DNA from: Macrostomum lignano
Lineage: Eukaryota
NCBI GenBank assembly: GCA_002269645.1
Contig: NIVC01000012.1
Location: 930,001 to 994,000, forward strand
Direction of reading: 5' to 3'
Length of the DNA stretch: 64,000 nt
Shown piece by piece: positions 4,491-40,747 of this stretch. The stretch's first letter is position 1, and the number at the start of each line of letters is the position of its first letter. The notes below the pieces were generated by a model, which ran no database searches, was not told the DNA's origin, and saw only the letters and a list, made by a program, of their open reading frames with translations. A program made the translations under genes and the position numbers.

Positions 4491-5240
4491 TTATTTATTT
4501 TCTAGGCTGCCGTCTGAACAGATTTTCAACCATTCCCTTCACTGTAGGACAGTTCTCTCAATTGATAAAAGTAAATACGCCGCTAGGAGCCCCCAGTTGC
4601 CGCTGCGCGCTTCGTAAAGACAGTTAAGATATGTGTCTCTATTAGCATACGCAAATTATACGGGTTCTGGCAGAATCCGCTTGAGCAACTTTGATAATAA
4701 CAGCCTAGTAGTTCTACCATTGCCGTCGCTAAAGGGGTGGGTGGTGAGAAACTTTTCTAGGAAATATGCTCCTGTCACTACTGCATCTTGCAGGAATTGT
4801 GGCTCGTTTATGTCTCTAGTTAATTTTACCAGCTGCCGTTCGATATTTTCTGGAGCGCTGTAATACATACTCGCACCTGCTGGCTTGGCGTGCTTAATTC
4901 TATACGATCCCGCATTTGAAAGCAGTCCTCCGCACACGCATGTGTGAACTTGTCTAACCAACTCTGTGTCAATTAACCCCCTCGTGTCATTGAGGTGTTT
5001 TGCCGCACTCCATAGATTGGCTGTGACCATACAGGACCCGGTTTTTATCGCTTCTTCTGCTTCCCCCCTCGTTAACGATGCTTCTCTCCTCAATGTTTAC
5101 TTCAGTTACGAATGCCAGCCGGGCCAGACTAGATGTGTGAATTCTAAGCGCTCCTTCGCGGTCAATCCCCCCATTCTTTTCCTAGTGTCTGATAACAATC
5201 TTTCAATGAGGGGTATTCTGTCGCGCACACTCGTTGCTGA
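4491..5240 (-). pseudogene. Fic/Fido-domain protein (AMPylase-type)
   Basis: Canonical motif HPFSDGNGRTTR. N-terminal FVTEVNIE..SLTRGEAEEAI resembles the SNxIEG..LT motif. Reading past the TAA at 4656 gives the typical C-terminal helix RDTYLNCLYEARSGNWGLLAAYL. Frameshifts near 5095-5130. Confidence 0.85.
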
Positions 5241-8065: not shown

Positions 8066-8279
8066 CATTCGGAAAAAAAGAGGATCATGACATACCAGCC
8101 TCCGCCAGCGGCTACATCATCATCATCATAATAACGCTTAGCAACGTCAGGCGCCAAAGAAATACTGAAGCAAGTCCGAAACGATTGAAGAAGAAAAAGC
8201 GCACCCGAAAGGCAACTGGTGGAAATCGAAATAATAGGTCGAGCAATGCTGATCTGCTCAATTATTTTATTTTATTTGC

Positions 8280-9372
8280 TGCCGCCTTGTCAGACTGGAT
8301 GGGTGTTTGCTGAGGGAGGATGTTCGAGACGGAGATGGCATCATCACCGAGCGCAGAGACAGTGATGTGCACCCAGAAAGTTTTGTTCTGTCTACAGCCT
8401 TCTCAGATGTAATTGTGAGCATTAACCAGCGAGTGGTTTCTGGTGGAGACCAGCTATATCCCTACCATGCGTACTTCAAAGCACTAATGTGTTCATCTGA
8501 TGCCCAGCAGCTAAAACTTTACCCTGCTGGCTTTCTGGAGCTGGACTCTGCAGGGAATCCTGGTGGATGGAGTATGTGGGGCCACTCTTCAGCGATGTTT
8601 TCCAGTGTCCAGTGTTTCTGCTAAACAATCTGCACCTTCACATCAAACTGGTGCCCAGCAATGGGGCCTTTGCCATCAGAAGCCTGAATGCAAACAATGT
8701 GGCATATCAAATGGAAATCTCTCACTGCATTCTGCATCTTCGCCGATTCAAAGTGGTGCCCCACATCAGCCTGGCCCATGAGCAGGGATTGACAAACCAA
8801 AATGCACTTTGGAACTAAAATGCATTGAAATGCAGACCTTCGTCCTACCCCAGGGTATCCAGTCTAAAAACATTGAAGGATTCACCTAGGGAAAATTGTC
8901 GAAGTTGGCCTTCATGCTGGCCTTCGTGAGCCACCGAGCATTCAACGGCCATCATCATCATCATTATCGTCATCATCACGCGAGCCCGTTCCAGTTCCAG
9001 AGCTTCAAACTCAGCCGGTTGACTCTAAAGAAAGGTGGAGAAACCGTGTGCCACGGCGCCTTCACACCTGAAAACAATTCCTTCGTAAGAGAATACTTAC
9101 ACTACCTGAAAAACTGTCAATCTGCAAGCTCCACAAATTCGGTCCCGTGGATCCCCTACCAGCTCTTCTCCAACAACAACACGGTGTTTGCATTCGATCT
9201 CACACCCGACGGAGCGGCTCTGTGGTACGGACAGAAGGAGGGCAACCTGCGGCTGGAGATTCGCTTCCAACAGGCTCTGAATGAAGCGGTGTCTCTGATT
9301 GTTATGTGCCTGTATGACTCTCTGATTGAGGTCACCAAGCACCGGGAGCTTTTCCTGGACTATTCCTCTTAA
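8280..9372 (+). pseudogene. Polinton major capsid protein (double jelly-roll, PY), N-truncated and frameshifted
   Basis: STAFSDVIVSINQRVVS..LYPYHAYFKALM; GPLFSDVFQ..LLNNLHLHIKL..AHEQGL; TVFAFDLTPD..KEGNLRLEIRFQQAL..DSLIEVTKHRELFLDY. These match Maverick MCP motifs. Confidence 0.92.
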
Positions 9373-9377
9373 CTGGC

Positions 9378-9920
9378 ATGGACGCAATTCAACTATTTAA
9401 TCTCGCCAGAAAATTTTTGCCTAACCAAAATTTCTCATAGTTACTTTACATTTGTGCTATAAAAATTCTCTGCCCTTGAATGTAAAAAGAAAATTTCGAT
9501 CATCAATTTCCCTTGAAAACAAGTTTGTATTTGTCCTACGTCAGAACAATGGCTCATTTGGTCACTGGGTGGTATGCTATGTTGGGCAAGGAAATTCCAT
9601 TGAGTTGTTGAACTCCCTCGGCTGGGAACCTGAAATTTTATCTTTGGTTTATAATTTGCTTCGAGAGATTAAAACAAATTGCTTTTGGCTCCGAAGCAAT
9701 ATAAACAGAGTTCAATGTGCTAACTCTAATAAATGCGGAATGTTTTGCATCTATTTTGCTTACGAAAAGTTGCTGTTCAATCGTTCATTTGAGGGGATTT
9801 TGAAGAGTTTGCATGCTAATGAAAAAATCATTTAAATGATTGAATTTTACAGATGTTTGAAGCCAACTTCAGAAAAAGATGTCCGTGATTTTCTAGAACT
9901 ATATTTATGCATTAGACAGG
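9378..9920 (+). pseudogene. Adenain/Ulp1-type virion maturation cysteine protease
   Basis: GHWVVCY (His), IELLNSLG (D/NS-x-G), RVQCANSNKCGMFCIYF (Gln, Cys nucleophile); N-terminal part disrupted. Confidence 0.88.
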
Positions 9921-9929
9921 AAGAAAATC

Positions 9930-10563
9930 CAGTTTGCTACGATATCCGCCTCAGGCAGGGAAGCTGTGTGATTGTCTTTGGAGCCACCAATGCAGGGAAA
10001 ACAACCTTTGTCAAACACCTGATCCAGTACGGAGACGTCATGTTTGATGTGAAGCCTGGCAGAGTTCTGTGGTACTATGGGATCTCACGTACAGGCCATG
10101 CAGAGCTGAGCAGCCTATGTGTGCAGCTGCACCAGGGATTTCCCACCAACATCGAGACAGCCCTTAAGCCCAATGACCTGGTTGTTTTCCATGATATAAT
10201 AGAGGAAACTTAAATTCTGCTTCAATGCGATTTTTTTTCACAGGAATCGCACATCACTTGCCGTGCTTTTTGGTGATGCTGACTTAGAATATATTTTTCA
10301 AGGGAAAAGAGTCGCGAACAATGAGCTTGAATGTAATGTATTTAGCTATCTTGAAAAACCCCAGAGACCAACTGCAGATTGCAGCACTGGGCAGACAGTG
10401 CTTTACAGAGAAGCCCGGCTTTCTGCTGTCAGTGTTCAAGCACGTGACCGCGCAGAACAGGGGAGCCTACCTGTTCCTAGACTTTCACCCATCAACTCCC
10501 GATGAGCTGCGAGTGCGGGCCAGAATTCTGCCTAACCAGCGACCCCATCTTGTATTTGCTTAA
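9930..10563 (+). pseudogene. A32-like DNA packaging ATPase
   Basis: Walker A VFGATNAGKTTFV, Walker B-like LVVFHDI, then SLNVMYLAILKNPRDQLQI..AYLFLDFHPSTPDELRVRARILP. Stop and frameshifts at about 10210-10320. Confidence 0.92.
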
Positions 10564-10589
10564 GAAAGTGAAGCTTGTTTTTTATCAGC

Positions 10590-11155
10590 TATTCAATCAA
10601 TATTTGAAGTACAGGTTTGTTGGTCCAAAAGTCGAGAAGCAAAGTTCAGGGACGGAATGATAGCAATATAGTTAGAGAAGTATATAATGTACATCCAGTG
10701 CCCCCTCCCTCAGAACACACGGAGAACATGTCCCGCGCCACTGTGTTGGAGTTGAATGTTGAGGTTGGGGGAATGCGCTTTAATGTACAGCGCTTCAAGT
10801 ATCTGGAGTTTGGAGTCAAAAGAACCTTGTTAAATGACTTTAAAGCGCTCTTCGGATTTTGCAGTTAGAGCAACTATTACACTCTAAGAGATGGTTTTGG
10901 ATAGCCGACGGTTTCAGCCAGTGCTCCCTGATTCTACTATGCAGGTGCCTTTTTGTCTTCCCCACGTAGGAGACGCTCTGGTCATCAGAGCAGTTAAACT
11001 GATAAACGACACCAGCACGAAGAGCTATCAGCTATTTTTTTCATCGCTATGGAAGTGTTTGATTCACATACAAGTCTTTACGTCACCAATATACCGTGCG
11101 CTTCAAGCGGCTGTTGATAAAAAATTGTCCAAAAGAAGTGCGTTATTTTCTTTTT
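10590..11155 (-). mobile_element. Penelope-like retroelement 3' fragment (GIY-YIG endonuclease)
   Basis: Minus-strand GVVYQFNCSDDQSVSYVGKTKRHLHSRIREH..IQNHLLECNSC..LQILEALYIKAHSPNLNIQ; absent from the ORF track because of frameshifts. Confidence 0.88.
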
Positions 11156-11345
11156 GAGGCCTGTCATCATCTCTTACAAAACGATTGATCGTTTTCGCTC
11201 GATGAAAAAGCTGTTCTTGCAAAGTCAAAAGAGATAATTCGAAAAATTACTCAGCAGAGAAGAAAGATAGACTTGTTGAAGGCTGGCTGGCTTCATCAAA
11301 ATACTCCCGATTCTTTTTAAGCTGGTAAAGAAGAAGAGCAAGATG
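11153..11345 (+). pseudogene. Maverick PW-like small basic protein, C-terminal half
   Basis: FEACHHLLQND*SFSLDEKAVLAKSKEIIRKI..DLLK/AGFIKILPILFKL resembles the ExxxNLL..LxxxKxxIRxL..GGFLxxLLP pattern of the small Maverick core-like protein. Confidence 0.55.
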
Positions 11346-12034
11346 AATAAATTTTCAGAAATGGTTCTGATTCCTAAGGCAGAGTATGAGATGTTGATGC
11401 AGAATTTTAAGCCGAATGAGAATAGCACTGAAGCTGACTTGAAGCAGGCTCAGAAGAATGCGATGATATCTTGTATGCCGAGGACTGCCCAGAAGATGTG
11501 AAAACCTCCATATATCAAAGTGCAATGCAAAGTTTGCTGGCCAAGCGCAAGCACGCTGGAAAAGAAGGAGCACGCAATACTGAAGCCAAGTTGATGAAAA
11601 CAGAGACACCACAGATGAGCACATGGGAAGAGAAGATCAGCAAGTCGGTGCCACAGAATTTCAAAACCAGGACTCGTAGTCTATGGACGATCCTGTCCAC
11701 CAATCCAGAGCTGATTCGAGTTTGTGAAAACAGGGAGGTGGAAATCACAGGCACTTCAATCCCTTCCTCAAACATACTGGACTTGATTTAGCATGCAGTG
11801 AGGGATTCGCCATGTGAGCGTGAACCAGTTGGCTGGAACGACTTAATAGATTTGCTGCAGCAGAAAAAGCTTAATGTTCCGCTTTTAGCTGTTGGTAAAT
11901 CAGTTAAAAAGAAAATGGCAAACAACAGAGGGGGTAAACTGGAGAAAGAACAGGCGAGTCTAGTCAAGGGGTACGGGAGCAACACAGCCTGGCTGAAACT
12001 GCCTGGAAGAAAAGTATATAAGAAGGCGGACTGA
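11344..12034 (+). pseudogene. Conserved Maverick hypothetical protein
   Basis: MNKFSEMVLIPKAEY..KTSIYQSAMQ..SVPQNFKTRTRSLW..IPSSNILDLI*..EPVGWNDLIDLL..LNVP; a motif set typical of a conserved Polinton ORF. Stop at 11789. Confidence 0.65.
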
Positions 12035-12062: not shown

Positions 12063-12790
12063 ATGAACTACATTGACTTCCAAGGATTCCCGTGCAACAG
12101 CACAAGTAAAAAATTTGTTCTGAAAGAGCTGGCAGTTGTTCAGGTCAGAGCAGGAAGCTACCGTATTGCTTACCATGTGTACGCACCTCCGTATCCATGG
12201 GAGAGAGTCTCTCCTGACATGCGAGTTTTCTACAGACAGCTATCAAAGAATCTTTGTATATATTGTAAGACCGTGGGTTGAATTGCAGTGAATAACAAAA
12301 CATGAGGAGACCTCACTGGCTCACGCCAAAATATTTAATGCCAAAGTTGAGGTGGGTGTAACCACCCTAAGCACGCACACGCTGCAGCGCTAAACCCCAA
12401 CCCCCAAACCAGCCAGACGTGCACAGACGTGCATGAGTAGCACAGACAAAAAGAGATCTAGCTAGACTGCGCGGACGTAAAGGCGCAAAGGACGCAAAGA
12501 ATCTGCACCAGTTTAAGTGGGATGATGGAACCCGTCCGTACATGGAACTGGCGGAAGACATTCTGAGCATTGCCAGTAGTCCGATATGGACAAATGGGGA
12601 AAGGAAGTCGATTTTCCTGACTGAGCTGCTTGGTAGAAAGGTTTATAACCTAGAAGATTTGGGAGCACCCTCGATTGAAGATTCAGATACTGGCTGTGCA
12701 GTGAGAAATTCATTGCTGCACTACAGTTGGCTTAAGCCAAAGTTCTGCATGAACTTAAGAAGCGAGCAGTGTCCGTGGCACAGGGGCAGT
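12063..12790 (+). pseudogene. DEDD/DnaQ-like exonuclease of the Polinton-associated type, split by an insertion
   Basis: YIDFQGF..FVLKELA..HVYAPPYPW. Removing the insert restores QLSKNLHQFKWDDGTRPY..IWTNGERKSIFLTELLGRKVYNLEDLGAP. Confidence 0.75.
12254..12494 (-). mobile_element. 241-bp retroposed insert (SINE or 5'-truncated LINE end) with 10-bp TSD CAAAGAATCT
   Basis: TSD at 12244-12253 and 12495-12504; A-rich 3' end (tacaatatatacaa) on the minus strand; excision restores the exonuclease frame. Confidence 0.85.
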
Positions 12791-12830
12791 GAATTTGGCA
12801 GAAGGTTTGGTGAAGAAGTCAAGGATCGAA

Positions 12831-13093
12831 ATGAGTCCACCTGCAGCTACAGCCCTAAGAGTGACCAATCTGGTTGGCGGAGTAGATCTGAGACTGTATG
12901 GTGGCAGGGGCGCCCTGCTGCCTCTACGGGAACTGGCTCTCAGCATGGCTCATGTGATCTACCGGCCCGTCTGGCCCCGGGTGCTCATCAAGCGGATGCG
13001 GAGTCCCAGAGTGACTCTGCTACTCTACCCTACTGGACAACTGAGCATCTGTGGCGCTAAGACCCACACACACGCCAAAAGGGCGCCAAAAGG
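12831..13093 (+). pseudogene. TATA-binding protein (TBP)-like, first repeat only, truncated by a LINE
   Basis: LRVTNLVGGVDL..LPLRELALSMAHVIYRPVWPRVLIKRMRSPRVTLLLYPTGQLSICGAKTHTHAKRA aligns by eye to TBP repeat 1 ([58 protein letters not shown]). Confidence 0.85.
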
Positions 13094-16000
13094 TGCACCG
13101 GTAACATCGCGGCCATTGCCAGCGCCAGCTGGACCACCCTTGGCGACATCGGCAGCGACCACCTTCCGATCCTGTTCAGCATTGACCGCCCGGGCCCCAG
13201 CGAGTGTCGACGAGGCGCCGCAAAGTGGAGCTACAAGAAGGCCGACTGGGCCCAGTTCCAAGAACACCTGACCGTGGCCGACAAGCGTCTCAAACTCAGC
13301 AACCGGTTTACCTGCGACGCCGACCACGACCGCCTCTGCAGGGCCATCCTGGAAGCCGCCTCGGCGAACATCCCCCGTGGCGCTCGGAACCGGCCTTGCA
13401 AGCCGTTCTGGACGGACGCCTGCCAACACGCCTGCGACGAACGCAACCGTGCGCGACGCAACGCTGAGCAGAGCAAATCCGAGCACGACATCAACGCCTT
13501 CCACCGCGCCCGCAAGACCGCGGCCGACACCATCAACTTCGCCAAACAACAGCACTGGCAACAAAAGATCGGCGAACTCAACCTCAACAGCGACCTCCTT
13601 GCCCTCGCCCGCTCGCTTCGAAGAGAGCCGCCGCCTCCCCCCGCCAACGCGGCCCTGAGCACCCCTGCCAAACCTGGATCCCGCCAGCGAACGGCTACCA
13701 CCCCGAGCGAAAAGGCCTATCTCTTCTGCAGCCTCTACGCCGAAGTTTCTCGCAATCACCGACGCAAGGAGGACCGCTCCATTGCCCGGCTCGCCCACAA
13801 GGCGATGAAACAGATCTGCTGCTCTGGCAATCAGAAATCCGGCCTTTGCAGCCCGTTCAGCGGCAGCGAACTGCAGAGTGCACTGCGCGCGCTCAAATCT
13901 GGGAAAAGCCCCGGCGCAGATGGTGTCAGCAACGAGATGCTGAAACACCTCCCGCCGTGCACTGAAAGCCGCCTCCTCGACCTCATCAACAAGTCGTGGC
14001 TCTCCGGTTGCTGCCCGCACCAGTGGAAACGGCCATAATCATCCCAATCCCCAAGCGCGGCAAACCGGCTTCTGACCCGAGCAGCTACAAGCTCATCGCT
14101 CTCACCAGCTGCATCGCCAAGGTCGCCGAAAGACTTGTCCAGAAGCGCCTCAGGCACCACCTTGAACAGCACGGCTGCCTCAGCAACGTCCAGGCCGGTT
14201 TCCGCAGCGGTCGGTCGTGTGAAGAACAGATTGCGCGCATCACGCAGGACATTTTCGACGGCCTTGAAGAGCTTCCACCCCAGCGCAGCGCCCTGGGGGT
14301 CTACGACATGTCCCGTGCCTATGACAAGGTCTGGAGGAAGGGTAACATCTACAAGCTCAGCCTGAAATGCATTACACCCTGCGCACTCCGCTGGACGAAC
14401 AGCTTCATCAGCGACCGCCGAGCCCGCGTCCGTGTCAACAACTGCCTATCTCGCGAGCGCATTTTCAAAGAGGGCTTGCCACAAGGCTCTGTCCTGGCTC
14501 CCCTCCTCTGGCTGGTCTACATTGACGACCTGGCAAGCGACATCCTCCAAGCCTCACCGCGAGCCAAAGTCAGCCTCTACGCCGACGACAGCGCCATCCT
14601 CCCCACGGCGCCCAGTCTGAAGGACTGCGAAGCCATCCTCCAGCCTGCGAACGAGGCTCTGGCCACCTGGTGCGAGAACTGGCACATGGAACTCAGTACC
14701 AGCAAATGCAGCTACACCACCTTCTCCCTGAGCCCAAACGAGACGCGAGGGAAGATTCCGCTCCAACTGACCCTAAAAGGCGAACCTCTGCAATTCGACC
14801 CTAACCCGACCTTCCTCGGCATCAAACTAGATGACCAGCTCACCTTCACCAAGCACGCAAAAGAAGTCTGTAGACGCATGGCGGCCCGCCGTCGCCCCCT
14901 CCAAGCGATCGCCCACCGGTTAAGTGGCGCCACGCAGGACATCCTCCGCACGGTGTACACCGCCACCATCCGCGCAATCGCCGACTATGGCAGCGGCATC
15001 TGGATGTGCGGATCAGCACCCAGCACCCGTCTAGCGGTTGGACGCCAACAAAATGCCTGCGCCCGCCTCATCACTGGATGTATCCGCCCCACCGATGCCA
15101 AGGAGCTGCTGTCTACCGCCGGACTCCCACCTATCAGCCACGTCGCTGTCGAACGCGCGTGTAATCTCCGAGAACGCCTCCTGCGCCTCCCGGAGGGCAC
15201 CCCGGCTCGCGAAACTGCCGAACGTGTCACCCGACCGCGCCTCAAGAACCGCAGTTACGAAGCCCTGCAGCGCCAAACCCGAAACAGCCCGGGCGCCACG
15301 CCCGCCGTCAACCAACCTGGCTGCCAGAAAGACGCCCTCCGCCCGCACCGTGGCTGCTGGCGCCGCGCCGCCCTCGAGCTTGAGTGCGCCGCCGCCCTGG
15401 ACCAGTTCCCACGCGCCCCGCCGCCTCTCGGCGCGAGCCCTGGAGAACCACCGGCGCCAGCGACATCATCTTCGACCTCCGAGCCAGCCTCCGGACCCAC
15501 CGCGACATGCCGCCAGACATCAGAGCCCACCACGCGACCGACATCATCGCGACTCTCTGCGAGTCCAACACGGTCTGGACCGACGGTTCCGTGACGGAAG
15601 GCTTCAAGAACGGTGGCGGGGCCGCCGTCATTGTGCGCGACGAGAACAACAACGTCGAACTTCGGGCCGCCGCAGGCGCCCTCTGCAGCAGTTACACCGC
15701 CGAACTCGTTGCCATCCAGGAGGCGCTCAAATACCTGCAAGCCGACCGCGCCGCCGAGCCCCACTGGATCGCCACCGACAGCCTCAGCGCCCTCACCGCC
15801 CTGCTCGCCGGTCCCATCGACCAGACCGATCCGACCGCAGCAGCGTGCTGGGACTCGATCATGAGCCTGAAAGCCGACGGTCGCCCCCCCCTCCTTTGCC
15901 TGGGTCCCCGCACATTGCGGAATCGCCGGCAACGAGGCGGCGGATCAGGCGGCTTCCCGAGCCGCCCAGCTAGAGCAACGTCACGTCGAGCTTCCACTCA

Positions 16001-16400
16001 GCGCCACCAAAGCCGCCGCCCGGCGCAGCCGCGGGTCCCTCGATCTTGCGGTCGTGTGCGCCTTCAAGCAGCCACCCGCCACCATGACCCGGCAGCGCCA
16101 AGTCCTCCTCAATCAGCTGCGAGCCGGAGCCAGCACCATCAACAACAGCTCGCTCCATCAGATGGGCCTCACCGAGACAGCCAACTGCCCTGACTGCGGC
16201 GAACTCGACACGGTCAGGCACATCCTGCTCGCCTGTCCTCGCGGTGACCGGTACCGCGCCCTGCACGGCATCCGCGCGGCCGAGGACTTGTTGGAGTCCC
16301 CGATCGCCCTTTTCGGCCTCCTGCGTAGCATGGGGCGCATGCCCCCGTCCATTTCGGCTAACCCCGACCCGGACGAGCCCTGAAGAAGAAGAAGAAGAAG
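13094..16400 (+). mobile_element. 5'-truncated I-group (Ingi/Nimb-like) LINE: APE end, RT, RNase H, Cys/His knuckle, (GAA)n tail
   Basis: GSDHLPILF and WSYKKADW (APE end); KSPGADG, QAGFR, LPQGSVLAP, YADD, FLGI (RT); WTDGS..AELVAI..TDS..WVPAHCGIAGNEAAD (RNase H); CPDCGELDTVRHILLAC; stop at 16383 then (GAA)6. Frameshifts near 14035, 15450 and 15905. Confidence 0.95.
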
Positions 16401-16896
16401 CATCTTCCAAGTCATCCGTCTTCACTACCGGCTTGGTCTCTTCCGCGTCTTCATTTTCGATGTTGTCGGAGGAAGATCCCGACTCCAGCTCGTATACATC
16501 AGACATCTCACGTGGAGCCGATAGCTGCTCATCGATCCAATCCGCGTACTGCCACAGCTTTAGCCACAGCGGCGGTGTCAGCGGCACGGTGTTCCGCTTA
16601 AGAAACTCGTCGCAGCAATCATCCGGCAGTCGCTTCAGCCAGATAATGCCGTTCTTCACCTCGATTAACTTATCGAAGCCGAGTTTGACAACCTTTGGCT
16701 GATTGTCCAAGGCCGCCTTGACAAGCGATCGCTTCAACTCCTTGGGTTTCTCCCACTGACAGATGTTCAAATTGAAGCCGGGGACTCTAGGTTTCAAACT
16801 CGCGGTGCTGCCATGTCGGTAAAATTTTCTGATAGCAATGAACTTAACTCCTTCATACTCCTGTATTTGGAGTTTATATCCTTCGCCGATGTCCAT
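16401..16896 (-). pseudogene. PC4/Sub1 (p15)-domain protein, probably two PC4-like units, C-terminus cut by the LINE tail
   Basis: MDIGEGYKLQIQEYEGVKFIAIRKFY..PRVPGFNLNICQWEK, then KLGFDKLIEV..VPLTPPLWLKL..IDEQL, then an acidic tail. The ORF-track extension into 15970-16400 is antisense LINE sequence. Confidence 0.85.
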
Positions 16897-16980: not shown

Positions 16981-17144
16981 TTAACCATTGCAGCTAACAT
17001 ACAGCAATAGAAAAACATAGGCCTATGTACTCTCACTGGAGGTCTCACGGAATTTCCATGGCCTGCCTGCGGCAGAGTCGCTCAATGGATTTACATAGGC
17101 CCGTATGTTCACTGACTAGGATCCATGGCTTTTCCACGGAAATT

Positions 17145-17479
17145 AGTAGTAGGCAAAAGTACGCTTCTAGACCCAGAGCACCTATTAAACACAGCATTTG
17201 GGCGTCTAGAGGGGGCGGTCAAGTTAATAACACAAACACATTTTGATGATTTTGTGGATTGGGATGTTGGTGTTGTTGGGTGTTTTTTATACCTCCATTT
17301 CGCCGAAATTGAAAAAGGTGGGAGGGGTAAAATGGCCTATTTGAGTGGATATTGGGTGTGATAAGTGCTTTTAGTGCTTTTTGGTGTTTTTTTATTTTCC
17401 CCCGACCGCCCCCTCTAGACGCCTAAATGCTGTTTTTAATACGTGCTCTGGGTCTAGAAGCGTACTTTTGCCTACTACT
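17145..17479. mobile_element. 335-bp non-autonomous mini-Polinton (MITE-like) with 76-bp TIRs and 6-bp TSD
   Basis: Begins AGTAGTAGGCAAAAG and ends CTTTTGCCTACTACT; TIRs 17145-17220 and 17404-17479 with 3 mismatches; GAAATT at 17139-17144 and 17480-17485. Confidence 0.85.
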
Positions 17480-18179
17480 GAAATTCCTGCGGCAGAGTTC
17501 TGTTATCCCATACTACTAAAAGGATTGAAGTAAAGATTTGAGTAGAAACTACCATTGGCGATTCACTAAAATGAAATTAAAATCTAAGACAGGCACCAAA
17601 TTTCAATCACTGATGAAAAAACATTCCTTAAAGTGTCTTCAAGTATGTATGATTGTTTCTCTGGGCATTTTTAGTACAAAATCACTTCCCAGAAGCGCTA
17701 TGTAAATCGTAAAATCAATAGAAGGCAATAAGCTGTATAAAGCCTGAAAAATACAATCTTTAATTAATCTGAACCTATTAATGTTTATTAAGAAAGTTGG
17801 ATCACTCGGATGAAGGAACGAGGTCACTACCCAGTGTAAAAATCGGCATCGAACGGTAACCGATTTTTAGGTGCCCCTACGTACACCTTATGTCCGAGCC
17901 AAACTGTATCCGTTGGATGCCGATGTCGGACCCAAACGGACACGAATCGGAGGGTAAAAAGTGAGGAAAAATTATTTTAACACTACTATAAGTAGGCAAA
18001 TAAAAATATTAAAAAACTCCTTGCAAAGTCATGAAATGGAAAAACTTATTTTACGTATTTAAATTGCCACTTTTAATTTTTATTCAAAAATCATATAGAT
18101 GAAGTTCTACGTCTGATATGCATGCTGTTCTACAGTAGTTAAAAAGCAATAAAACACAAATACAAGTCAATTAGTCAAA

Positions 18180-20327: not shown

Positions 20328-21650
20328 ATGCCGAAAAAAAGAAAACGAACCGCAGTCGATTCAAATTCTTCCCGCGAATCTCGAAACTGGCTTGCAGCAA
20401 GTTTACTTGACGCCCAGCTTGCTGGTGACGCCCTCGGCGCCGGCCAGCCTCACCAGCATCCGCCAACCGAATTCGAGAAAGATTCTTTAGAATCAAGCAA
20501 AAATGATCATTCCCCAGGAGACATATCCGTCGAGCAGCCTTCGTGCATCCGGCTGCAATTTAATTATTTCGGTGACGAATCCTATATACTAAAAATCTGC
20601 ATCTGAAAGTGAAGACGACTTTGACGTTGAAGACGAATCAGAATGTGACGCAAGTGAATGTGCTCCAGCAAAGCCTAGTATGAAATAATTAGATGAGGAA
20701 CTGCTGGTGCTGTTCTTAACTTACGGTATATCACATAGAGCCATGAAGTTTCTTCTCAATGCATTATCTAGTCGCGTATTACCGGTGGCAAAGTCGCCCT
20801 ATTTTCTGACGCACTCAACAAAATGCAAAAAGAAGGTTCAGAGTACGCCATGGGCACTGGTCACTTCGCCTACATTGGAATATCTTCAAACATTGCCTAT
20901 CTTATACAGAAAGGATTGCTAAATTTGGATTCTGCTAACAGGGTTCTACTTGCGGATGGTGGGCAAGGCTACAACTTAAATCTCAAAATTGGAATCGACG
21001 GCATGCCCATCTATAACTCGTCTAATTATTCAGCTTGGCCAATATTGGTTACTGTCTCAGGATTTTCGCGTCCACTTCTAGTCGCAGCTTATGCCGGGCT
21101 TGTATTAATCGCTTTGTAATCGAAGCTCACTCTTTGTATGGCGACTCAGTTAGGAGCCACAACACGCATGTCCTTTTGCATCTTCCTTCTTTCGTTCAGC
21201 TGTATGGCAATCTTTGCAATTTTTCCGCTTTTCCTTTCGAAAATTACCTGTCTCATCTGAAAAGGCGCCGGAAAGTGACACGTTTTGAATCATCGCATCT
21301 GCTGAATGAAATTTACAATCTACGCGATCTGCTAACTAAAAATCCCGTGTCGTGTCTTAGGTATAGCAGCAAACCGCCGGATAACTGTTGCATTGTTGAC
21401 GGAAAGGTACTGCGAATTACGAGAGTAGAAGGTTTCACTGTCACGGGTAATGTAATGTCCCTGCAAGACAATCTATATACATATCCGTATCCCTCATCCC
21501 TTCTTGGAATCGGTTTTTTTCGAAACGCGAAACTCAGTCAGCGGTTTACCAATGAAAAAATGTTTTCTACTGCCTCGGAAGTCTGCTAAATGTGGTCTTA
21601 TCATTCCTCTGACTGGCACAGACTCTTCTAAAAATTGATGATTTACGATG
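20328..21650 (+). mobile_element. EnSpm/CACTA-like transposase remnant with internal deletion
   Basis: ISHRAMKFLLNAL..HFAYIGI..LKIGIDGMPIYNSSNYSAWPIL..PLLVAAYAG joins directly to LYGDSVRSHNTHVLLHL..YGNLCNFSAFPFENYLSHLK; the catalytic middle region is missing at about 21100. Confidence 0.85.
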
Positions 21651-24120: not shown

Positions 24121-24983
24121 AGCATTGAAATTTCAGTAATTCTCTCTAAGAGTCATTATAGCACTACTACAGCATTATAGCGATTCCCTGCAAGCCTCAA
24201 CATCGTAGGGATTCCCAAATGAATCTCTTAACTTCGACATGAAGCTTATTTTATTTTTTACATTACGCTTTTTTATCAGCGATCCCTCCCCTGAGGAGGC
24301 ATCAAATAATGTAATAAAAAGTTTTCAATAAACTACATGTAGCTTCTGACTTTAGCCTTGAAATCTCATTTATACCCCCGTGAGCCTTGACATCTCAGCT
24401 ATTCCCCCGTAAGCCTTGACATGTCAGCAATGGCCCCCATAAACCTTGAAATCTAAAAAATCCCCTGTTAACCTTGAAACCCGATAAAATATAACCCTCA
24501 ACCCACACCTGACCTAAACCTAACTTTAACCCAACCTAAAGCCTTGAAATCTCAGCAATTCTTCTCCCCTAAGCCTTGACATTTTAGTGATTCCTTCTTT
24601 AAGAATAACAGCACTATAACGATTTCCACCAAGCTTTGACATCGTAGCAATTCCCAAATGAATCTTTCAACTTCGACATGACTTTTCTTTTATGTATACA
24701 TAGTGCTACTTTTATTTTTTACATGACTCTTCTTCTATCAGCGCCCCCCCCCCGTGACATGAACTTTGAAGTAGCTTCTGACTTTTGCTTTGACATCTCA
24801 GAAACCCCCCCCCCCCGTAATCTCAGTTATTCTCTGAGAGCCTTTACGTCTCAGTTTTTCTCCCCAGCACAGCATTATAATTGCATTTAATTTTTACATG
24901 AACCCTTCATGTCTGACATGACGTTTTTTTATTCTACCGTGACGCTTCTTAATTTTTTAAATGACACTTTCATTAGTTTTTAA

Positions 24984-27412
24984 ATGAGGCTTCTATGATT
25001 TTTTCTTGACGCTTCTATGATTTTTACATGACGCTTCTATGATTTTTATATGACGCTTCTATGATTGTTTACATGACGCTTCTATGATTGTTTACATGAC
25101 GCTTCTATGATTGTTTACATGACGCTTCTACGATTTTTTACATGACACTTCTATGATTGTTTACATGACGCTTCTATGATATTTTACATGGCGCTTCTAT
25201 GATTGTTTACATGACGCTTCTATGATTGTTTACATGACGCTTCTATGATTGTTTACATGACGCTTCTACGATTTTTATATGACGCTTCTATGATTTTTTA
25301 AATGGCGCTTCAATGATTTTTTAATGACGCTTCTATGATTTTTTACATGACGCTTCTATGATTTTTTACATGACGCTTCTATGATTGTTTACATGACGCT
25401 TCTATGATTGTTTACATGACGCTTCTATGATTGTTTACATGACGCTTCTATGATTGTTTACATGACGCTTCTATGATTGTTTACATGACGCTTCTATGAT
25501 TTTTTGAATGACGCTTCTATGATTTTTATATGACGCTTCTATGATTTTTTACATGACGCTTCTACGATTTTTATATGACGCTTCTATGATTTTTTAAATG
25601 ACGCTTTTATGATTTTTTAAATGACGCTTCTATTATTTTTTAATGACGCTTCTATGATTGTTTAAATGACGCTTCTATGATTTTTTACATGACTCTTCTA
25701 TGATTTTTTAAATGACGCTTCTATTATTTTTTAATGACGCTTCTATGATTGTTTAAATGACGCTTCTATGATTGTTTACATGACGCTTCTATGATTGTTT
25801 ACATGACGCTTTTATGATTGTTTACATGACGCTTCTATGATTGTTTACATGACGCTTCTATGATTGTTTACATGACGCTTCTAAGATTTTTTACATGACG
25901 CTTCTACGATTTTTTACATGACGCTTCTATGATTGTTTACATGACGCTTCTATGATTTTTTGAATGACGCTTCTATGATTTTTATATGACGCTTCTATGA
26001 TTTTTTACATGACGCTTCTATGATTGTTTACATGACGCTTCTATGATTGTTTACATGACGCTTCTATGATTTTTTGAATGACGCTTCTATGATTTTTATA
26101 TGACGCTTCTATGATTTTTTACATGACGCTTCTACGATTTTTATATGACGCTTCTATGATTTTTTAAATGACGCTTTTATGATTTTTTAAATGACGCTTC
26201 TATTATTTTTTAATGACGCTTCTATGATTGTTTAAATGACGCTTCTATGATTGTTTACATGACGCTTCTATGATTGTTTACATGACGCTTCTATGATTGT
26301 TTACATGACGCTTCTATGATTGTTTACATGACGCTTCTATGATTGTTTACATGACGCTTCTATGATTGTTTACATGACGCTTCTATGATTGTTTACATGA
26401 CGCTTCTATAATTGTTTACATGACGCTTCTATGATTGTTTACATGACGCTTCTATGATTTTTTACATGACGCTTCTATGATTTTTTACATGACACTTCTA
26501 TGATTGTTTACATGACGCTTCTATGATTTTTTACATGACTCTTCTATGATTTTTTAAATGACGCTTCTATTATTTTTTAATGACGCTTCTATGATTGTTT
26601 AAATGACGCTTCTATGATTGTTTACATGACGCTTCTATGATTGTTTACATGACGCTTTTATGATTGTTTACATGACGCTTCTATGATTGTTTACATGACG
26701 CTTCTATGATTGTTTACATGACGCTTCTAAGATTTTTTACATGACGCTTCTACGATTTTTTACATGACGCTTCTATGATTGTTTACATGACGCTTCTATG
26801 ATTTTTTGAATGACGCTTCTATGATTTTTATATGACGCTTCTATGATTTTTTACATGACGCTTCTATGATTGTTTACATGACGCTTCTATGATTGTTTAC
26901 ATGACGCTTCTATGATTTTTTGAATGACGCTTCTATGATTTTTATATGACGCTTCTATGATTTTTTACATGACGCTTCTACGATTTTTATATGACGCTTC
27001 TATGATTTTTTAAATGACGCTTTTATGATTTTTTAAATGACGCTTCTATTATTTTTTAATGACGCTTCTATGATTGTTTAAATGACGCTTCTATGATTGT
27101 TTACATGACGCTTCTATGATTTTTTACATGACGCTTCTATGATTGTTTGCATGACGCTTCTATGATTTTTTAAATGACGCTTCTATGATTTTTATATGAC
27201 GCTTCTATGATTTTTCACATGACGCTTCTATGATTGTTTACATGACGCTTCTACGATTTTTTAAATGACGCATCTATGATTTTTATATGACGCTTCTATG
27301 ATTTTTTAAATGACGCTTCTATGATTGTTTACATGACGCTTCTATGATTTTTTTACATGACGCTTCTATGATTTTGTAAATGACGCTTCTATGATTTTTA
27401 CATGACGCTTCT
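24984..27412. repeat. 20-21 bp minisatellite (acatgacgcttctatgattgttt), >100 copies, with higher-order blocks
   Basis: Direct inspection; a variant series containing ctctt/cttcta-ag recurs, for example near 25680-26200 and 26530-27050. Confidence 0.98.
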
Positions 27413-28159
27413 TTTTAAAAAGTCTTTTAGTTTTCCTGACGTTGAAAAGCTTTAATTAAAAAAATTATACTCTATGAAAATTCGAACCATCGTCGCTGCA
27501 TTTAGCAGTTCAGTCTGTTTACCTCTAGGCTAGCTCTCATCGTTTTGATAACATCAAAATTTGCACTTATATAATTCAACACTTGAAAATCCAAGCATAG
27601 AGTAAATCACACGAAGCAGTTATGACATAATCAGTTTCTCAGTCAGTCAGTATCAGTTAACAATATGGTTACGCAATTTAAATCAAGTCTGGTGCTACGC
27701 TTCCACACTGCATTTTCAATTCAAGTCGGAGTTACAATTCAGTTATGATGCAATCTATTTCAGAGTCAGAATTCAACCAGTCAGTTTTTTCTCTAGCATT
27801 CTTACAATGCATTTCAAGTCGAAAAGTTTGCTTGACCTTTGCAAAAAAGCATGTTTTTCGAATATTTAATGCCTTTAGCATCGAGCAATTTCTTAGCCAC
27901 GATGCATGTACAGTCACGGGAAAATTTCTGATCGAACAGTGCAAGTTCGAACAAAATCGGTCCAGCCATTTTTTCTCTAATCGATCACATAGACACAGAC
28001 AGACCATTTTTAGTATATAGGACTAGCAATCTTTGCCCCCCGATGGGGGCATCTGGATAGAATCCTTGTTTTTTACAAATAACAAATAGACAGCGAAATA
28101 AAGCCTTCAGAAAAAACAACAGACATTCCCTCTTAAAAACAAAACATCCCAAGACAGCA

Positions 28160-28830
28160 AGCATCCTCAGACAACATTCAAGCATTGATCCCCAAATAGC
28201 AAGCATCCCCCAGACTGCAAGCATCCCCCAGATAGCAAGCATCCCCAGATAGCAAGCATCCCCCAGACTGCAAGCATCCCCCCGATAGCAAGCATTCCCC
28301 CAGACCCCAGATAGCAAGCATCCCCCAGATAGCAAGCATCCCGCAGATAGCAAGCATCCCCCAGATAGCAAGCATTCCTCAGATAGCAAGCATCCCCCAG
28401 ATCGCAAGCATCCCCAGATAGCAAGCATTCCCCCAGACCCCAGATAGCAAGCGTCCCCCAGATGGCAAGCATCCCCAGATAGCAAGCATCCCCCAGACTG
28501 CAAGCATCCCCCGATAGCAAGCATTCCCCCAGACCCCAGATAGCAAGCATCCCCCAGATAGCAAGCATCCCGCAGATAGCAAGCATCCCCCAGATAGCAA
28601 GCATTCCTCAGATAGCAAGCATCCCCCAGATCGCAAGCATCCCCAGATAGCAAGCATTCCCCCAGACCCCAGATAGCAAGCGTCCCCCAGATAGCAAGCA
28701 TCCCGCAGATAGCAAGCATCCCCCAGATAGCAAGCATCCCGCAGATAGCAAGCATCCCCTAGATAGCAAGCATCCCCCCCCAGATAGCAAGCATCCCCCA
28801 GACAGCAAGCAACCCCTGATAGCAAGCATA
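28160..28830. repeat. 18-19 bp minisatellite (gatagcaagcatccccca)
   Basis: Direct inspection; reverse-complement copy at about 54700-55150. Confidence 0.97.
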
Positions 28831-29359
28831 ACCTGGATACAAAGAGACCTTATAGATATCTAGCAACCCCCTCTCAGATAGCAAGTACTCTCCACCCCCA
28901 AGAGCAAGCATCCCCCAGATAGCAAGTATCCATCCTTAAATAGCAAGCATCCACCAGAGAACAAGTAGCTAGTGCAACAATTTCCTTAGCTTTATAATGG
29001 TTTCATTTTGTTTGGCATGACACTTCTTTTATGTTTGAAATGGTGTCTCTTTTTTGTTTAAAAAAGTGGCTTTTTAATGTTTGACATGGTAGCTCTTTTG
29101 TGTTTGACATGATAGCTCTTTAATGTTGGACGTGGTGGCCCTTTTGTGTTTGACATGGTAGCTCTTTAATGTTTGACATGGTGGCTCTTCTATGTTTGCC
29201 ATGGCGGCCCTTTTACGTTTGAAATGGTGTCTCTGTTATGTTTGACATGGTGGCTTAGTTGTTTGACATGGTGGCTCTTCTATGTTTGACATGGTGGCTC
29301 TTCTATGTTTGACATGGCGGCCCTTTTACATTTGAAATTGTGTCTTTTTATATTGGGCA

Positions 29360-37545: not shown

Positions 37546-37994
37546 TTTTCCTCAACCTCTATTTCTGTACTGTTGTCTTTTAACTTTCGCAAATTTATGC
37601 CTCAAACTGCAAGTAAAGATATATTTTTAAGATCTAAAAATCTATTTATAAATTTGTAACTGCAGAAGGGCTTGAATAATATCACTTTTTTTATTTATAG
37701 TAGTAATAAGTAATAATCACGCAAAATTCGCTAGCAGTTTGACAAGTTTGAATACTTTTTATTTGCATCAATTTGCGACGGAGCCTACGTCTTAAATTCG
37801 ATAAATAAAAATGATTTCCGGGAAAACTTTTACCCAAGGCGTAGGCTCTGAATATTTGTATTTGTCTTTATTTTTCAACTGTTGTTAAACAGTCTGACAA
37901 AGGTTTATGGTGGAACATAATTTTTAAGATATAAGCTTTAACAGTATAATACTCTTATTTAGATCATAAAAAATAATGGGGAATACTATAGGCA

Positions 37995-38735
37995 TAGTGT
38001 CTGCCTGCGACGCCTAAATGAGTGTCTGTGGTGCCAAAATGAGTGTCTGCGGTGCCAAAATGAGTGTCTGCCTGCGACGCCAAAATGAGTGTCTGCGGTG
38101 CCAGACTGAGTGTCTGCGGTGCCAAAATGAGTGTCTGCGGTGCCAGACTGAGTGTCTGCGGTGCCAAAATGCGTGCCTGCGGTGCCAGAATGAGTGTCTG
38201 CCGGTGCCAAAATGAGTGTCTGCGGTGCCAGAATGAGTGTCTGCGGTGCTAGAATGAGTGTCTGCGGTGCCAAAATGAGTGTCTGCGGTGCCAGACTGAG
38301 TGTCTGCGGTGCCAAAATGAGTGTCTGCGGTGCCAAAATGAGTGTCTGCGGTGCTAGAATGAGTGTCTGCGGTGCCAAAATGAGTGTCTGCGGTGCCAGA
38401 ATGAGTGTCTGCGGCGCTTTATAAAATGAGTGCCTGCGGCGCTAAAATGAGTGTCTGCGGTGCCAAAATGAGTGTCTGCGGTGCTAGAATGAGTGTCTGC
38501 GGTGCCAAAATGAGTGTCTGTGGTGCCAGAATGAGTGTCTGCGGTGCCAAAATGAGTGTCTGTGGTGCCAGAATGAGTGTCTGCGGTGCCAAAATGAGTG
38601 TCTGCGGTGCTAGAATGAGTGTCTGCGGTGCTAGAATGAGTGTCTGCGGTGCCAAAATGAGTGTCTGTGGTGCCAGAATGAGTGTCTGCCGGTGCCAAAA
38701 TGAGTGTCTGCGGTGCCAAAATGAGTGCCTGCTTA
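37995..38735. repeat. 21-bp minisatellite (aaaatgagtgtctgcggtgcc)
   Basis: Direct inspection; the overlapping ORFs are repeat translations. Confidence 0.97.
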
Positions 38736-40747
38736 CGCCAAAATAAGCGCTGAAAATACCGATTCTCAAAATAATGTAGGAATGCACATGTACGCTCGTA
38801 CAATTCTTTGCTTTGTTTCCCCCCACCATAAATTCCACGGCGACGCCCCTGATCCCTGAATGAATTGAATCCTTTGACCTTTCTGAAGTTTGCAATATTC
38901 ATTTTCTGCAATTTTGCATTAATCCTTGACTCAGCTTTTGCAGAAATATTTTCTCTGCTTTCTGAAATAATCCTAACTAACTCGAATTTAAGTTAGATCT
39001 CTCCATTTCGTTTATATTTTTGATGGTCTCTTTCCTTCGCGCTAAGATTTTCTGTTCGGCTCTATTTCCTTAGCCTTTTGCGCTTCGCCACAGTCTATTC
39101 ATATTTGTTTCGCCAAAGATCAAGAAATGAAGTAAGACAAAAAGCTTCATTCAGGGCCTTCGCCTTAGTTAAAATTGACATCTTATGAGTTTCGTATATT
39201 ATTCAACTTTCAATATATGGAAGACGAAGGCCCCGTCGCAAGTTGATGCAAATAGTTTTTTATGAACTTACAGTCCACAGTTATTACAGGTGACTTAAGA
39301 TATTTTGGATTTTTGAAAAAAGACTGCCACTCATAGTTTTTGTAAAAATTCACTGTAAACGTTAAGTTGTTGCAAACTTTGGAAAACTAAAAACAAAATT
39401 GTTTCGTCTTTTGCATAAATTTGCGATATAAAATACATAGCTAAAGTTTTTACGGGAACTATAATGAGATTTCAGGTGAAAAATAAGAAACAAATTCACT
39501 ACTCATCAAGACATAATTCATTCAAAGCAGTGCAAAAGATTGTTTCAGAAGTTAATTTCGACTAATACTGTATGAAAGTGCCTTACCAGTAAAACACAAA
39601 TTAACTGTAAAGTGCAAATTGTCTGTAAAAATTAATACAGAGTGAATAAAATAAGTCTAATTGAGCTTCAATATATAGTTCATCAGCCATTAGCTCGTAC
39701 TCACTGCCATGCAGTATCTACGCTTCTTTGGAAATTGTGCATTTAATTGACTATTGTGCAAAAGTAAGCGAAGAAACTAAAAGTGCAGCTCACCTCATTC
39801 CGAACCAGAATTTTTCCCCGCAAGGGAGTCGTTAGCTTCGTGCAATTTTTTACATCAAGAATTTTCATCTTCTATCGTTACTTAGTATGAGTAGAATTTT
39901 ATGCGATCAAAAGTATGTGAATTCTCGCAAGATGAAAAATGGTTGACGAGGCCATTGTTAAATACGCTTTCTTAAAATGCGATACTATTACTCTGCCTTT
40001 CAGGGTGTAGGTGCGTACACTCACCTGAACACATCACGCCATTTTACTACCCCTAATTCATCTCCGCGTACATTTTTATCACTCTCTCTCCAGTGCGTCA
40101 ACCCCAATTATCGATCTATTTGACAGCTACACAAGCCAACCATTATGAAATATCGGCATTGCTCATAGCTACCTGCCTTCTTGCTGCACTGCACATTCAT
40201 TCTGTACACTGCACAATGGTTAGAAAATTGCAGACGGAATGATTGAATGAGCCGGAGGTGGGTGTGAGAAGTCTATTTGATTGGCTGTAGGCTCACCCAA
40301 CCTATTGAATATGTACACATTGACCTGCACACAGACCCTTTTAATTAACTGAATGAAGGGGTATTGCTACAATCCGTTCTCTAGCTGATTTATTTAGAAT
40401 TCAGTGTACGCTTTCCATGTATCTTTTTTTCTATATTCTTATCTGGCTAACGCTGGTATATATCAAGCGAAAAATTAGTAAAATTTGCTCAACTTCGTTT
40501 TCAATTTGACTTTTCACTGCGTGACTGTTATTTGCAATCCGCAACCACCTCTTAGCTAAATTATTTATTTATTAAAGATACGTTACTCGTTAATTTAAAA
40601 AACTACAGTACCGTACTTTCCTATCAATCATACCATATCCTTTTCGTACTGTTCTGTAGATTGTAGGGGCGTAGTACTACGATTGTTTTTTATTCTAATT
40701 TCATTTGCTATATTGTACGTACTTTACTCCTTTCGAACGAAAAAATA

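Follow-up and report, generated by a model that had tools for sequence, protein, structure and literature searches.

A TBP-like gene with one remodelled repeat and a candidate promoter word in Maverick elements of the flatworm Macrostomum lignano

Introduction

Can a Maverick (Polinton) carry its own TATA-binding protein (TBP), and if so, which genes would it serve? How these elements switch on their capsid genes bears on whether they behave as viruses. The question is raised by a stretch of 64,000 nucleotides of the Macrostomum lignano genome (contig NIVC01000012.1, positions 930,001 to 994,000 of the forward strand), here referred to as the window and numbered from its first letter, in which a short open reading frame resembling TBP lies among Maverick remnants. 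A sequence-only reading of this stretch had proposed that the lineage carried its own TATA-binding factor to drive or redirect transcription.

Results and Discussion

The window copy is a broken first repeat in a dead element

The 87-codon stretch that begins at the ATG at 12831 (+ strand) matched the Pfam TBP profile (PF00352) with an E-value of 9.2e-10 and a score of 38.7 bits (cut-off 22.9); its residues 10-85 aligned to profile positions 3-74 of 85. The alignment to TBP repeat 1 seen in the sequence-only reading was thus borne out. The gene is reduced to this repeat (12831..13085), leaving 85 of about 193 codons, and what is left was 95% identical in amino acid sequence to residues 1-85 of the TBP of an intact element (C754, described below). 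The previously proposed start at 12831 stood, but the proposed end at 13093 did not, as similarity to intact element copies stops at 13084-13085; the reading frame itself continues to 13271, inside LINE DNA. This LINE (13085..16400, +) is 5'-truncated, encodes a reverse transcriptase and RNase H (RVT_1, E 1.1e-29; RNase_H, E 2.9e-5) and ends in (GAA)n. It interrupts the TBP gene, and no target-site duplication was seen at its junctions. The remainder of the TBP gene is absent beyond the LINE; an opposite-strand PC4-like gene (16429..16896, -) is found there instead, belonging to an oppositely oriented Maverick end and with its 3' end cut by the LINE. Its Pfam PC4 match (E 0.0028) was below cut-off, and it shared 63% amino acid identity with the PC4-like gene of C754. 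Upstream of this gene lies an inverted repeat of 84 nt (94%; 17138-17220 and 17404-17487), which is also present in another element, C219.

Ahead of the TBP gene, and in the same orientation, a series of damaged element genes was recovered. The left end of the element fragment contains part of a small basic gene and the presumed major capsid gene (8082..9372, +), with a deletion and frameshifts, followed by a broken adenain-type protease (9407..9835, +; Peptidase_C5, E 5.7e-5, above cut-off) and a frameshifted packaging ATPase with a Walker A motif and a weak FtsK match (9920..10563, +; E 0.004). Two small conserved element genes, whose counterparts elsewhere encode 112 aa and about 230 aa, are frameshifted here (11087..11791, +) and preceded by a 432-nt insertion (10594..11025) missing from the intact copies compared. 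A nuclease-like gene, for which a Maelstrom-like identity is a lead only, was traced by tblastn with the C754 protein to 12063..13060 (+); it is interrupted by a 242-nt insertion (12254-12495), and its frame overlaps TBP repeat 1. The TBP frame was correctly placed as co-oriented behind presumed capsid, protease, ATPase and nuclease-like remnants, but it overlaps the last of these and does not merely lie downstream of it. The names "MCP" and "exonuclease" given to two of these genes earlier gained no confirmation from any library or structure search. Three copies of a word discussed below as a candidate promoter occur in this run: TTAAGAA at the end of the ATPase gene (10560..10566, +), ATAAGAA before the nuclease-like gene (12018..12024, +, inside TATATAAGAA) and TTAAGAA within the nuclease-like gene, 69 nt before the TBP ATG (12755..12761, +). 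The element in the window is a dead 5-kb fragment with a deletion, two insertions and frameshifts, and its ends are absent.

Other features of the window include a Fic/DOC domain frame (4656-5096, -; Pfam E 2.4e-13), unmatched by the Maverick copies compared, tandem repeat arrays at 24890-27415, 27985-28859 and 37991-38844, and fragments at 20772-21589 (+) that resemble a DNA-transposon transposase by eye and gave no Pfam match.

Intact copies place the TBP gene in two Maverick families

A first search of the genome returned 152 matches and, with a family-2 query added, at least 167 distinct TBP places were found, family 1 accounting for 130 and family 2 for 37; these counts are a lower bound. 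A TBP match lay within 2 kb at 139 of the 141 places of the upstream nuclease-like gene, which identifies TBP as a fixed gene of the element and not a chance retrocopy. A search of the genome with PF00770 for Maverick families lacking TBP returned no match anywhere and is uninformative. Sixty-three loci were taken from the better matches; 61 were parsed and, after removal of five duplicates, 56 distinct places remained, 45 of which held a full-length open TBP gene (at least 185 aa). The collection of other genomic copies thus yielded the full two-repeat gene, whose intact product is 185-201 aa long. The TBP proteins of the two families occupy the same gene position and are only 35% identical to each other.

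Six long regions were inspected for element ends, which were clear in three; the terminal inverted repeats (TIRs) of C110 are more decayed and two regions ran into contig ends. The C754 element measures 16.5 kb with TIRs of 674 nt at 99.85% identity, C254 has TIRs of 1034 nt at 99.7%, and C986 is flanked on both sides by the 6-bp target duplication GTCTTG. C754 encodes an rve integrase (E 4.8e-14) with a chromodomain and a protein-primed DNA polymerase B (pPolB; DNA_pol_B_2, E 6.8e-20). In family 1 the genes are ordered PC4-like, integrase, presumed penton, basic, presumed capsid, protease, ATPase, two small genes, nuclease-like and TBP, with pPolB head-on after TBP (downstream in 22 of 27 of the 4-kb loci). 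In family 2, pPolB is at the left and the PC4-like gene lies head-on after TBP (11 of 11 of the 4-kb loci). Long TIRs, a 6-bp duplication, integrase, pPolB, protease and ATPase, the last known from its Walker A motif and a weak FtsK match only, are all Maverick traits. Genes of 427 aa and 272 aa occupy the places expected for the double jelly-roll major capsid and penton proteins; their 26 homologues include none named capsid, and neither gave a Pfam or PDB sequence match. The presumed major capsid is so called from its size, its position and a motif. No RNA polymerase gene was seen in the 16.5-kb element.

A PC4-like gene is found in both families (C754, C986, C136, C219, C110 and C254; Pfam E about 5e-5, just below cut-off), and its product could act as a coactivator or a single-stranded DNA-binding protein. 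The pPolB region of C754 (60105-62729) includes an endonuclease VII-like zinc domain (E 4e-7), and a 324-aa arm gene with cysteine pairs (56806-57780) has a weak FAM76 match. In C986 an LTR-retrotransposon-like gag/pol pair lies within the integrase gene (319550-325518). Contigs of four of 24 listed runs, from four studies, which we only guess to be RNA, covered TBP repeat 1 through the presumed penton in pieces of at most 3337 nt, with the integrase partly uncovered; these contigs carry no information on strand, level or ends, and we give them no weight as evidence of expression.

The protein is a TBP saddle with an altered DNA face

Intact copies of both families contain two Pfam TBP repeats (E 2.4e-25 and 5.6e-19; 88.6 and 68.2 bits, cut-off 22.9). 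The predicted model of the element TBP (pLDDT 87, pTM 0.76, the best of five, the other four having pLDDT 59-65) had PDB entry 1mp9 as its top match (E 4.6e-13, TM 0.78), and all PDB matches listed down to E 5e-9 were TBPs. As modelled, the element protein is a true but remodelled TBP saddle. In the comparison that follows, the yeast TBP numbering was mapped via the host TBP and was checked against the residue list of the table cited below only. All 45 full-length copies keep the equivalents of Asn69, Val71, Phe190 and Phe207 and the YEPE loop, the latter having served in the filter that chose these copies. All 45 also share the changes Phe99 to Pro, Phe116 to Tyr, Val122 to Ser, Thr124 to Cys and Asn159 to Thr, and the equivalents of Val161 and Val203 are Thr and Lys, with Pro191 also changed. 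Two of the four intercalating phenylalanines are retained, both in repeat 2, while those of repeat 1 are Pro and Tyr. In the window copy the first of these positions is likewise Pro. The aromatic residues earlier noticed near the intercalating positions were therefore located correctly in part: the Tyr falls exactly on the second phenylalanine of repeat 1, and the Trp one residue before the first.

Among the DNA-binding nulls of yeast TBP, Table 1 of PMC2265533 has the substitutions Phe116 to Tyr and Val203 to Lys, together with mutations of Phe99, Asn159, Val161 and Pro191. The coincidence of these residues with those of the element disfavours ordinary TATA binding, and the sequence suggests that the element protein may fail to bind DNA as TBP does. 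Among nine allele representatives (36 pairs), dN/dS was 0.04-0.27 for repeat 1 (36 of 36 pairs) and 0.07-0.28 for repeat 2, where it was estimable in 16 of the 36 pairs; both repeats are under purifying selection.

Ancestry and relatives

The host genome has separate TBP and TLF-like genes, in three places each, to which the element TBP is 27-28% and 24-25% identical, respectively. It is accordingly more diverged than a host TBP would be, as had been proposed. A profile search against 1.84 billion representatives returned eight proteins at E 1e-30 or better: one plant TBP, four gene models from these elements and the outside relatives P0002, P0009 and P0010. The last three share the signature of the element TBP. 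Among named proteins, the closest were from Macrostomum lignano. Among other database entries, the public models P0007, P0008 and P0011 splice Maverick TBP pieces onto host genes and are probably annotation errors, and P0052, P0058, P0074 and P0198-P0203 are short metagenomic TBPs (171-185 aa) with no N-terminal extension. The Phe-His of repeat 2 is common to the element proteins and the three short metagenomic TBPs examined. The viral_contigs search gave no confirmed locus for the element alignment or for P0052, P0058 and P0074, and one metagenome scan for relatives gave a single locus of 1.5 kb, in which 35 residues matched and no gene could be recognised. These searches placed none of P0002-4, P0009, P0010, P0052, P0058 and P0074 in a Maverick.

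In two quick trees, of 66 rows and of 30 rows (the second omitting 36 long-branch or redundant rows), the element proteins formed one clade (support 96 and 99). This clade adjoins the three short metagenomic TBPs (support 85 and 96), a placement that is unsure where long branches meet. Forcing the element proteins together with host TBP was 16.9 log units worse and was not rejected (AU p 0.062); grouping with the TLF pair was marginally rejected in the 30-row quick tree (AU p 0.038). The trees place the element proteins in a separate clade far from host TBP, and leave a remote host-type origin in play. None of the three outcomes that the sequence-only reading had named as refuting it (no TBP profile match, other copies without the gene, tight grouping with host TBP) was observed.

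These results bear on the alternative that the frame is host TBP brought in by chance, as a retrocopy or passenger that does nothing for the element. The frame is intronless, like the core of the host TBP gene, and the tree with host TBP survives at the AU value given above. Against this stand the low identity, the same position in two families so distant from each other, the purifying selection on both repeats, the occurrence of relatives at 51-70% identity in other data sets and a well-supported clade on a long branch. We consider a passenger so improbable that it hardly competes, and a recent retrocopy is refuted by the low identity, fixed position, selection and separate clade. An ancient capture from a eukaryotic host is possible and would be compatible with the explanation that we prefer below. 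The view that this lineage has its own TBP-fold gene is upheld by profile match, fold, fixed position, selection and distant clade together.

An overlapping gene and a probable crossover point between the repeats

The nuclease-like frame overlaps TBP repeat 1 by about 110 codons. In 44 of the 45 full-length copies it is open for at least 105 codons into TBP, and its phase does not differ between the families. With the TBP sequence and its codon usage taken into account, the chance of such an open frame is 0.006-0.029 for family 1 and close to 0.03 for family 2, and the controls (the other frame, and repeat 2) show the expected stops. Between subfamilies the synonymous difference was 0.30-0.44 in repeat 1 versus 0.55-0.60 in the core of the nuclease-like gene, whose tail in the overlap is of low complexity. 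The nuclease-like protein had no Pfam or PDB match and a predicted model of pLDDT 37; Atlas offered Maelstrom (PF13017) at 0.88, which is a lead only. Maps of adintoviruses in the supplement of PMC8502044 carry "MAEL" labels. Frames of 358-391 codons that fuse the nuclease-like gene to part of TBP were seen in C3017, C3389, C4807, C2930, C2941, C4402, C862, C5126, C2038 and C1330, as expected from single indels inside the overlap, and the database model P0006 is a fusion of the same kind.

Family-1 copies are 97-100% alike to about nucleotide 345 of the TBP gene and then only 43-87%. About nine repeat-2 allele classes, with saturated synonymous sites, are found on three repeat-1 classes, each repeat-2 class being accompanied by its own downstream pPolB arm. 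These sequences are most simply read as having crossed over repeatedly where the most conserved stretch ends; a crossover inside the TBP gene implies that all of these pPolB arms had a TBP gene.

A candidate promoter word precedes most central-module genes

In C754 the word WTAAGAA is found 31-141 nt ahead of the integrase, presumed penton, basic, presumed capsid, ATPase, 112-aa, nuclease-like and TBP genes; none was found before the protease or 230-aa gene. Within the central module, counts in sense and antisense were 10 and 0 in C754, 9 and 0 in C219, and 6 and 0 in C110 of family 2, compared with shuffle means of 1.41, 1.39 and 0.98, and none of 300 shuffles each reached the observed number. 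Eight of the 10 words in C754 and seven of the nine in C219 lie 20-150 nt before a start, where it should be kept in mind that both the word and this 20-150 nt window were picked after inspecting C754 and that C219 is its kin (about 75% identical). Words lying within the end of the preceding gene exceeded the expectation from protein and codon usage in C754 (5 versus 0.68, P 0.0007) and C219 (4 versus 0.55, P 0.0025), and weakly so in C110 (3 versus 0.96, P 0.07). Across the whole window the word showed no excess (31 versus 28).

At the TBP gene, WTAAGAA stands in the same place in 42 of 43 family-1 loci; plain TATAAAAG lies ahead of the family-2 TBP gene in 12 of 13 loci. The word is mostly CTTAAGAA in family 1 and reads TATAAGAA in family 2 and before the nuclease-like gene, and the integrase end in both families carries GACTTAAGAAA. 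Plain TATA boxes precede the PC4-like genes in four elements of family 1 and a single right-arm gene in C754, and in family 2 they stand before pPolB and the PC4-like gene; no clear TATA box was found at the other right-arm starts inspected in C754. In the family-2 elements C110 and C254 the same TATA-containing stretch is present in both TIRs, before pPolB and PC4-like, respectively.

Baculovirus late promoters contain TAAG, and WTAAGAA could by the same token be an initiator-type late element, read by a helper virus or another factor, with the TBP serving, say, early or host-gene control. The TAAG core is indeed the best preserved part (TAAGAA in 17 of 24 upstream windows), and one family-2 copy has the word just 4 nt before the ATG. 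That copy, however, has a second word 87 nt upstream, and for most words the distance to the ATG is 27-70 nt, enough to accommodate a TATA-type start. We know of no helper virus for this host, and regard an initiator as improbable.

Proposed role of the element TBP

The explanation that we hold to be probable, with modest confidence, is that the TBP of intact elements binds WTAAGAA and uses host TFIIB and RNA polymerase II (Pol II), with an early/late split like that of KSHV ORF24. WTAAGAA would act as a TATA-like promoter, some 30 nt ahead of the start site, and be read by the element TBP before the integrase, packaging and presumed capsid genes, to whose transcription host Pol II would be recruited. 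Repeat 2, with both phenylalanines and the YEPE loop, would still bend DNA and bind host TFIIB, and repeat 1, remodelled by its Phe to Pro, Phe to Tyr and Val to Ser changes, would read the AGAA half. Host TBP would fire the genes with TATA boxes first (PC4-like and arm genes), giving an early/late cascade as with the herpesvirus vTBP. That the TBP drives element transcription, proposed earlier, thus stays a deduction from sequence, for which a candidate promoter word is now available.

Several observations argue against this explanation. The family-1 TBP gene sits behind its own word, and a priming step would be needed; the family-2 gene lies behind a plain TATA-type sequence at nearly all loci; the protease and 230-aa genes of C754 are without the word; and very different repeat-2 alleles are tolerated on one repeat 1. 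The residue changes are also those listed as yeast DNA-binding nulls (PMC2265533, Table 1), and KSHV ORF24, according to PMC12529657, requires all four phenylalanines.

A rival reading is a decoy or cofactor like TRF2/TLF, which would bind TFIIB, TFIIA, NC2 or Mot1 and shift or dampen transcription, with WTAAGAA serving host TBP as a weak TATA box. Many DNA-face residues are altered at the yeast null positions while YEPE is kept, family 1 keeps the basic helix of repeat 1, and the form of the word in family 2 and before the nuclease-like gene is one base off a plain TATA box. The family-1 form, however, is not a TATA box. Across the two families the altered residues (Pro, Tyr-Pro, Ser-x-Cys-Gly) vary hardly or not at all, as would be expected of a new specificity more than of decay, and the tree with the host TLF pair was marginally rejected. 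A decoy is thus a serious but rather unlikely reading, and we continue with promoter recognition by the element TBP.

Taken together, and as a tentative picture that we hold to be possible and somewhat doubtful as a whole, a 16-kb Maverick may run its own early/late cascade on host Pol II. TATA boxes would serve the arm genes, and a half-remodelled TBP with a private WTAAGAA code would serve the integration and virion genes, including TBP itself. The TBP gene would be the crossover point, with repeat 1 riding with the virion module and many repeat-2 alleles accompanying different DNA polymerases; the TBP halves would amount to a natural library of altered DNA specificity. A candidate reader and a candidate 7-nt promoter make Maverick gene control testable in a laboratory flatworm, and such a TBP, remodelled by nature in one lobe, would reveal the extent to which TATA recognition can be re-tuned.

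Comparison with known systems

A viral-type TBP as such is of a known kind. New here is a TBP of animal Mavericks whose core is full-length and half-remodelled, together with a candidate promoter private to the elements, a gene that overlaps TBP and a probable point of crossover. The Mavericks/Polintons of Barreat and Katzourakis (2021; PMC8097293) resemble the elements described here in TIRs, integrase, pPolB, ATPase, protease and two-module layout, and differ in that TBP is outside their eight core genes. The words TBP and TATA were absent, by term search, from the texts of PMC8097293, PMC11161782 and PMC10748475. The novelty implied by the sequence-only reading has to be qualified, as the legend of Figure 5 in Starrett et al. 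(2021; PMC8502044) already gives "TBP" for a MELD virus or related element with adintovirus-like PolB. There it is a legend label only, and sections 3.2 and 3.4 of that paper contain no residue, promoter or selection analysis. Our search found no study of a Maverick/Polinton TBP or promoter, that legend being the only relevant item in a literature from which subscription papers mostly fell outside the scope.

Cellular and archaeal TBPs (1mp9, 1ytb, 1cdw) share with the element TBP the two-repeat saddle (TM 0.75-0.79), the Asn69 and Val71 equivalents, both repeat-2 phenylalanines and YEPE; the element protein differs in its 23-28% identity, the lack of an N-terminal extension and its residence on a mobile element. 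TBP and TFIIB are a textbook pair whose complex needs DNA, and by sequence the acidic TFIIB-binding loop of canonical TBP is present as YEPE. TRF2/TLF proteins are similar in having a TBP fold with lost intercalating phenylalanines, as seen in the host copy, but the host TLF-like protein has His at the first repeat-2 phenylalanine, where the element TBP keeps Phe. The TBPs of large DNA viruses (Heterosigma akashiwo virus, mimivirids, asfarvirus B263R) have the same fold (BFVD E down to 1e-10) at 8-19% identity. Large DNA viruses with TBP homologues mostly bring their own RNA polymerase, unlike the 16.5-kb element, in which no polymerase gene was seen.

The vTBPs of beta- and gammaherpesviruses offer a possible functional parallel. 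KSHV ORF24 reads TATTWAA with host Pol II (PMC12529657). According to the same source, it differs from the element TBP in having four phenylalanines, no acidic TFIIB residues, further domains that bind Pol II and, at the C-terminus, DNA, and five partners, whereas the element TBP is a bare core of 185-201 aa with YEPE. Common to both are the TBP fold, a more polar DNA face and, presumed for the element, a non-canonical AT-rich word marking late genes and the use of host Pol II.
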